A DNA stretch of 63,365 nt, filler included, from Platydemus manokwari (taxonomy: Eukaryota): the NCBI GenBank assembly GCA_037951405.1. It is 6 parts of 6 records of this genome, joined end to end, with 100 filler letters (N's around TTAATTAATTAA, not from the genome) between each part and the next. Parts side by side here need not be neighbours in the genome. Positions count along the whole stretch, not along the records: positions 10,597 to 19,929 come from JBBMOY011262985.1; 5 more parts are not named here. One strand, written 5' to 3'. Under the pieces are notes generated by a model that made no database searches, was not told the origin of the DNA, and worked only from the letters and a program-made list of their open reading frames with translations. Made by a program: the position numbers and the translations under genes. This document shows positions 16,401 through 17,250 of this stretch, in pieces (within the stretch, counting starts at the first letter, position 1; the number at the start of each line of letters is the position of its first letter).

Positions 16401-17250
16401 TTCTGGAATAGATTGTCGAGTTTATTCCATAGGCATTATTATTCGGCTGACAGAGATTTGGTTGCTGGGTCGATGAAGTGTGATGACAATTTCAGGCGAT
16501 CTGCGATATAGAGGTTCCAGTGGTTGTTGTTCCAGTGAATTAGCCAGTAAGCAGTTTCGCGAGTGGCAAGTTTCCTGAATGGGAATGATTCGTAGAAAGT
16601 TTTGAAGTCATTTTTCAGGATGGCAATTGCTGGTTGGGGTTTTATGAATATGTTGGCCGCTTGATCTGTGATTTTGTTATATAGGAAAACTTCGATTGTA
16701 GAGCTGGTTAGTCATTGTGATTGTATATCCTTATTCAATAGCTGCAAGGCATCGATATCCGTGTCATCTGTTTGTTTGGTTGCATGAGGAGCGTGACTAT
16801 CCAAGTGATATTTGAATCCAGTGGCTGGTCCAATGTATCCGCAGTAGCATTGGACGGCGAATTCAGTTTTGATGGCGATATTCTGCGTTTGGTTGAAATT
16901 TTTCGGTACTATTGTTATATTGGTAAACGGGAAGCGATAAATCTTTGTGCACATATTACATTTTGCTTTTTTGTCATCCGTAAGGTTTATGTAGGCAGGA
17001 GTTTGACTAGCACCACCGTAGTTTAGAAAAATATTGCGTTAAATTGATTTGATTTTGGAGTAGGCTAGAAATGGGTGGATCTGGAATTATTGCTTCGTCC
17101 GTGTGAGTAGGGTTATCATCTGTGTCGGATTCAGTGTATGGAGAGTCCATCAAGCCAGTCGTGGTTTGAGTTAGGACTACATCGTCAATGTCATTATCAA
17201 TTGTTTCAAAGTCAGGTGATGGTTGGGTGGATAGTCTAATTGGTGATACT
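13450..17250 (-). mobile_element. RLE-type non-LTR retrotransposon with Ulp1/C48-like protease, NeSL/Utopia-like (element E2), disrupted
   Basis: Zinc-finger-like VQCYCGYIG..YHLDSH; protease motifs YWLIHWNNNHWNLY and LQLNSYDCGLFII; RT (SSPGNDG, WRPIAL, DGCAEHN, GFKQGCPLS, YADG, YRYLG); CCHC CRRCHTERETDAHIFIHC; RLE KRH..KSDL..IVDL.IPFD. Confidence 0.92.

Follow-up and report, generated by a model that had tools for sequence, protein, structure and literature searches.

The window analysed here, a 63,365-nucleotide stretch of DNA from Platydemus manokwari, contains two non-LTR retrotransposons (E1 and E2) in which an upstream reading frame is separated from a protease-reverse transcriptase (RT) frame by a TGA stop, and the question raised by this locus is whether the stop is damage in dead copies or a codon that the element keeps and translates. 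From the comparison with intact relatives we consider it probable that a conserved UGA-CU(A/U), positioned at a tryptophan codon of the protease, is read through at low frequency, yielding an ORF1-protease-RT-endonuclease fusion. What is seen directly in the DNA is the order of the domains, a single in-frame stop in intact copies, the identity and the position of that stop, and the absence of a usable AUG.

The window consists of AT-rich eukaryotic DNA (GC 24-43% across 2-kb bins), in which 33 of the 2867 TGA triplets on both strands continue with CTA. Its features are listed in Table 1.

Table 1. Features of the window; positions count along the whole stretch.
Feature	Position	Strand	Remarks
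E1 element, heavily decayed non-LTR retrotransposon	2400..5969	-	protease, RT, RLE
E1 junction CAA-TGA-CTA (CAATGACTA)	4697-4689	-	homologous to E2 junction
E1 Cys-rich ORF1 remnant	5409-5969	-	
E2 element, decayed non-LTR retrotransposon	about 13.5-17.3 kb	-	protease, RT, zinc-finger-like ORF1 end, RLE
E2 C-terminal part, shifted frame, decayed	13500..14600	-	CCHC and restriction-like endonuclease (RLE) motifs
E2 reverse transcriptase, decayed	14666..15961	-	RVT_1 matches
E2 Ulp1/C48 cysteine protease domain, 3' of stop	16250..16711	-	His at codon +64, DP, QxNxxDCG
E2 junction CAA-TGA-CTA (CAATGACTA)	16717-16709	-	TGA 16714-16712, candidate readthrough codon; conserved C48 Trp
E2 ORF1 open 3' part, in protease frame	16715..17038	-	Cys/His zinc-finger-like motifs CNMC; CYCG...H...H
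E3, third RT-RLE element	27600-30500	-	heavily decayed, more distant from E1/E2
Voltage-gated K+ channel exon	40386-41234	-	Ion_trans 119 bits; same strand as E1-E3
16-nt tandem array	42047-42446		
Inverted repeats	56869-57263/60335-60729		
Five gaps of the same form	10497-10596, 19930-20029, 32755-32854, 42633-42732, 53929-54028		44 N, 12 bases, 44 N

In E2 the junction lies exactly where the preliminary description placed it, and the peptides quoted there are correct: an ORF opening at the ATG at 16954 closes at the TGA, after which the same frame stays open for 90 codons, up to two decay stops in the protease (TAA TAA, 16441-16436). On the minus strand the translation across the junction reads IQSQ*LTSSTIEVFLY in E2 and LTSQ*LSGPAVKSYI in E1. 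With stops translated as X, a Peptidase_C48 match was obtained for E2 (29.1 bits, cut-off 20.7), and none of the Pfam profiles matched E1, which may extend further 5'. The ORF1 part of E2 gave a weak zf-BED match in the Pfam profiles (E 0.023, under the cut-off), and its CCHC and RLE assignment was read from motifs in the translation and similarity to E1, with no RLE profile match behind it. E2 has 10 further in-frame stops (two frames counted), and in each of the two elements a second TGA occupies a Trp column (4547 in E1, 15307 in E2). Since the copies in the window are decayed in this manner, they do not suffice to rule out decay of the junction codon, and it was copies from outside the window that did so.

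The two stops fall in one column of a tblastn alignment (33% identity over 174 columns, E 3e-22), although the DNA around the junctions gave no blastn alignment. E2 had been described as carrying a second, independent occurrence of the stop. The second occurrence is real, but its origin is not independent: E1 and E2 inherited the stop from a common ancestor. A third CAATGACTA, at 53482, was taken as chance, the surrounding DNA being riddled with stops and without a retroelement frame, and the upstream part of E3 is too decayed for any recognisable junction.

Intact relatives were collected by searching with 11 aligned ORF2 proteins from the database, giving 80 metagenome loci (out of 368 relatives, with 33 of the 64 parts of the metagenome scan covered) and 77 genome loci (GTDB). 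The protease region was present in three of these 157 loci, L001-L003, and in none of the 77 from GTDB. A metagenome scan with RT peptides of E2 gave no relatives, nor did viral contigs. L001 and L002 have a full-length unbroken ORF2 and one in-frame stop each, and that stop lies in the E1/E2 stop column. L001 reads GNS*LDGRVIELY (AGT TGA CTA G), with 253 open codons upstream and 1152 downstream, and L002 reads ATA*LNNFQIAAY (GCA TGA CTT), with 55 upstream and 1108 downstream. E2, L001 and L002 are mutually 32-33% identical in protein and belong to one 12-row RT clade (support 100/99), into which the best RT matches of E1 also fall (a placement by BLAST, E1 not being a row of the tree). Peptidase_C48 scored above the cut-off in E2, L001 and L002, in which the Pfam profiles further detected RVT_1 and no Exo_endo_phos (APE); CCHC and PD-like motifs were seen in the three translations, with no RLE profile match.

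This domain composition suggests that E1, E2 and their relatives are NeSL-like RLE (R2-group) non-LTR retrotransposons, the RT tree holding unnamed relatives only. The NeSL-like layout comprises an N-terminal Ulp1-like protease, an RT, and a C-terminal zinc finger plus RLE (PMC4640811, in part), and the present elements share the protease, RT, zinc finger and RLE, as well as the WL motif that opens the protease, with NeSL of Caenorhabditis and with Utopia-1_TSP. Elements of the R2 group have, by published description, a single ORF (PMC3636483, in part), and L001 and L002 differ from this description by their one in-frame TGA. No Rfam match in the window or in L001-L003 points to a specific repeat target (SL, rDNA, tRNA or U2) such as characterises the NeSL clade proper (NeSL, R5, LIN, Utopia), the element ends being decayed or cut.

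The stop is TGA in all four clade members known as DNA, of which two (L001 and L002) are intact, and it is followed by CTA in E1, E2 and L001 and by CTT in L002. CTA makes up 12-25% of the Leu codons in the ORF2s of these members. Of the CAA-TGA-CTA given in the preliminary description, the conserved signal is TGA-CT(A/T); its 5' CAA is not kept, being AGT in L001 and GCA in L002. Outside the clade, the intact protease-RT element L003 has a single TGA-CAA (position 2283), which separates an ORF of 734 codons from one of 1148. As this TGA precedes the Trp column by about 21 codons, the L003 stop is not at the Trp, and it may have moved or arisen separately. In L005 (position 495), another RLE-type relative, one in-frame TGA-TGG divides 164 open codons from 542.

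Sequencing run X1, the one run that matches the stretch (share 0.41) and that may be the window's own source, contains many E2-family copies, and 290 of its contig records were placed on 15900-17100. Three of the four other E2 stops in that region read as sense in X1, at 100%, 97% and 92% of depth. The 40 differences listed include none at 16709-16717, the nearby ones being at 16699 (20 contigs) and 16732 (11 contigs). As there are 256 further differences beyond those listed, and the stop at 15964 is likewise not among the 40, X1 rules out no more than a change at the junction with strong support, and its copies may include a minority TGG. Loss of the TGA from other copies, which according to the preliminary description would have refuted its reading, was thus not seen, L001 and L002 retaining the TGA directly and the X1 contigs within this limit. 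No RNA run is listed for the stretch.

The intact copies bear directly on the alternative that TGG decayed to TGA independently in dead copies. Such decay would fit E1 and E2, with their other disabling changes and their second TGA at a Trp column, but apart from this one stop L001 is open over 1405 codons and L002 over 1163, none of their 32 other Trp codons is changed (TGG in 17/17 and 15/15), and the stop occupies the same column in all four members. Together with the database proteins described below, where all nine long clade ORF2 proteins begin past this column, these data largely refute decay, which we regard as extremely unlikely.

The same codon counts speak to a sense reading of UGA, either as Trp in the genetic code of the host or as selenocysteine, as might be suspected where a frame is open except for one stop and that stop occupies a Trp column. 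The ORF2s of L001-L003 contain 47 TGG (15/15 in L003) and no TGA, and all four Trp codons of the K+ channel exon are TGG, so that reassignment of UGA to Trp is refuted for these ORF2s and for the host exon. Selenocysteine is opposed by the fact that the column is not that of the catalytic Cys, and no Rfam family reached the gathering score in the window or in L001-L003. A sense UGA is thus highly improbable.

Where the stop falls in the protease was assessed by profile alignment, as the preliminary description had proposed, and this confirmed that the E1 and E2 stops are homologous and that both lie at a C48 Trp column. In SENP2, SENP1 and Ulp1 this column holds the W that opens WLND, with three of the five W rows in the profile column coming from reading TGA as W. 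It corresponds to chain residue 48 of 1euv_A, which is W448 in our own numbering, and W448 of yeast Ulp1 lines, or helps to form, the substrate tunnel (PMC9603560, in part). W is present at this column in 7 of 10 cellular rows and in 10 of 11 NeSL rows (S5 Fig of PMC4640811), so that NeSL has a sense codon where the E1/E2 clade has UGA. A model of the read-through L001 protein (pLDDT 88.8, with residues 1-15 below 50 and the W at the stop supplied by the TGA=W reading) matched Ulp1 (1euv) with Z 18.7 and rmsd 3.1 over 174 aligned residues. Since the match begins at residue 9 and the stop is residue 21, the stop lies inside the domain.

Among 27 database proteins aligned over the stop column (P0153, P0156, P0157, P0160 and matches to the RT only were left out), 22 begin past it, several within 3-10 codons, and among these 22 are all nine clade ORF2 protein clusters of at least 874 aa. 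One of the nine, P0155, is the ORF2 of L002, where the TGA is seen, and in this one case the late start hence reflects the TGA. The five that cross the column have W (P0148, P0149, P0006 and P0158) or L (P0152). P0006 is a fused element of 2421 aa from outside the clade, and P0158 looks cellular. P0148, P0149 and P0152 look like family fragments; they are known as protein only, and the stop may therefore not be universal. No fused clade member was found among proteins of 1169-3335 aa (best of 120 matches 229 bits, versus 246-374 bits for clade members), no long fusion was present among 20 matches of a protein search without length limit, and the 248-aa junction region had no match among proteins of 136-434 aa. 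A further protein search covered proteins of 366-1168 aa. By eye, the database relative P0002 appears to have two tandem Ulp1-like domains before the RT.

The W fragments P0148 and P0149 could be reverse-transcribed copies of edited RNA if A-to-I editing turned UGA into UGI, decoded as UGG (Trp), in part of the transcripts, an explanation that would directly account for a stop at a Trp codon. A G before and a C after the A is, however, a poor ADAR context, and there is no shared duplex around the site. Edited RNA would moreover return to the genome as TGG, yet all four DNA copies have TGA and X1 gives no majority TGG change among the differences listed. As the CU context needs explaining under editing and not under readthrough, we find editing quite unlikely.

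A separate start for ORF2 has also to be considered, either by termination-reinitiation or by internal initiation, with ORF1 ending at the UGA and ORF2 begun at an AUG, or independently of an AUG as in mammalian L1. The elements resemble SART1 and L1 in having two ORFs on one non-LTR RNA, and ORF2 translation of SART1, L1 and Zorro3 is described as reinitiation, for SART1 and L1 in PMC5972666 (in part); any sense codon is tolerated at the L1 ORF2 AUG (PMC1965478, in part). An AUG overlaps the stop in E2, as noted in the preliminary description with reinitiation in mind, and likewise in E1 and L002. This AUG is real but out of frame, so that reinitiation there would yield 12 residues in E2, 7 in E1 and 2 in L002, and it is missing in L001; SART1 uses an overlapping stop-start plus downstream structure (PMC5972666, in part), whereas the E1/E2 clade has no in-frame overlapping AUG. 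The first in-frame AUG is located at codon +48 in L002, +69 in L001, +108 in E2 and +170 in E1, i.e. past the catalytic His (+64) in three of the four, even though L001, L002 and E2 have all kept their triad motifs intact. A separate start would also leave the strict UGA-CU and its position at the Trp unexplained, and we judge it rather unlikely, the form that may still apply being an AUG-independent restart as in L1.

Readthrough, the reading that we favour, is consistent with both the stop context and the conserved coding frame past the stop, which stays open for 1152 codons in L001 and 1108 in L002. Type II readthrough is defined by UGACUA, and a UGA that is read through mostly yields Arg, Cys or Trp (PMC13517186, in part). 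The type II context (UGA followed by CUA or CGG) is found in E1, E2 and L001, and the CUU of L002 departs from it at +6. Stop and +4 to +6 positions are as at the sites of Sindbis and other alphaviruses and at the mammalian UGA-CUAG type II sites, UGA CUA ACC being common to E2 and Sindbis and UGA-CUAG to L001 and mammalian genes (as far as the source gives these sites). The present sites differ from the alphavirus ones, so far as these are described there, in belonging to a non-LTR retrotransposon, in interrupting a folded domain, at the codon of a conserved Trp, and in having no shared downstream stem-loop, a stimulatory element present at some type II sites. Single-sequence folding of E1, E2 and L001-L003 gave no shared 3' hairpin, as had been anticipated, the protein identity of 32% precluding covariation analysis. 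Only in L001 did the 3' fold exceed the ORF2 background in stability (rank 0 among 21 windows and rank 1 among 20); the 3' region of E2 was among the least structured. With no shared 3' structure, the short stop context would have to account for most of any stimulation.

In the mechanism that we propose, ORF1 and ORF2 occupy one frame split by the single UGA-CU(A/U), at which most ribosomes would stop and release the ORF1 protein, and a smaller share would decode the UGA with a near-cognate residue (Trp, Cys or Arg), in the manner of Sindbis-type UGA-CUA sites. The rate of readthrough would then determine how much ORF1 protein is made relative to RT, and where Trp is inserted, the tunnel residue corresponding to Ulp1 W448 would be in place. 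The protease might subsequently cleave the fusion or, equally speculatively, target SUMO-like modifiers of the host. It is conceivable, if somewhat doubtful, that the stop acts as a double gate in an old clade of non-LTR elements, readthrough setting the ORF1:RT ratio and only Trp insertion giving a fully active protease.

A comparable arrangement is that of MoMLV gag-pol, an LTR retrovirus system in which an abundant upstream protein is accompanied by a rare fusion to protease-RT, the protease being an aspartic protease. The E1/E2 clade would share with it the upstream protein and the proposed rare fusion. The MoMLV stop is, unlike that of the E1/E2 clade, UAG-G followed by a pseudoknot and decoded as Gln (PMC13517186, in part). 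A TAG-G split was observed in other elements of the collected loci: in six APE-type elements with the APE confirmed (L008:1262, L040:2454, L091:1092, L126:1667, L132:1215 and L157:1190), ORF1 and ORF2 lie in the same frame, split by a single TAG plus G (TAG-GGG in L091 and L132), and the APE starts soon after. L018:2405 and L063:2647 have the same split, L063 without APE. This split resembles type III UAG-G readthrough.

Among planarian elements, R5 has two ORFs. R5 (Girardia) and the planarian LIN are, by description only, NeSL-related elements like the present ones (PMC4640811 and PMC3636483, both in part), and their published descriptions may already show or mention the junction. No report of readthrough in non-LTR elements was found in the full-text literature open without subscription, and the available part of PMC13517186 has no mention of 'retrotranspos'. 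As judged from the DNA, where the case is strong, the junction is real and conserved, and it would represent a known recoding signal in an element class for which we found no earlier report.

If readthrough occurs as proposed, it would constitute a third route to ORF2 in two-ORF non-LTR elements. Elements of this kind are easily mistaken for broken ones, or their ORF2 is annotated without the start of the protease, as in all nine long database proteins. If the double gate is true as well, it would make these elements the first non-LTR retrotransposons with programmed readthrough, and the activity of an enzyme would here depend on which residue is inserted at a stop codon. A stop kept at a functional Trp would provide a natural test of which residue the host chooses at UGA-CUA.
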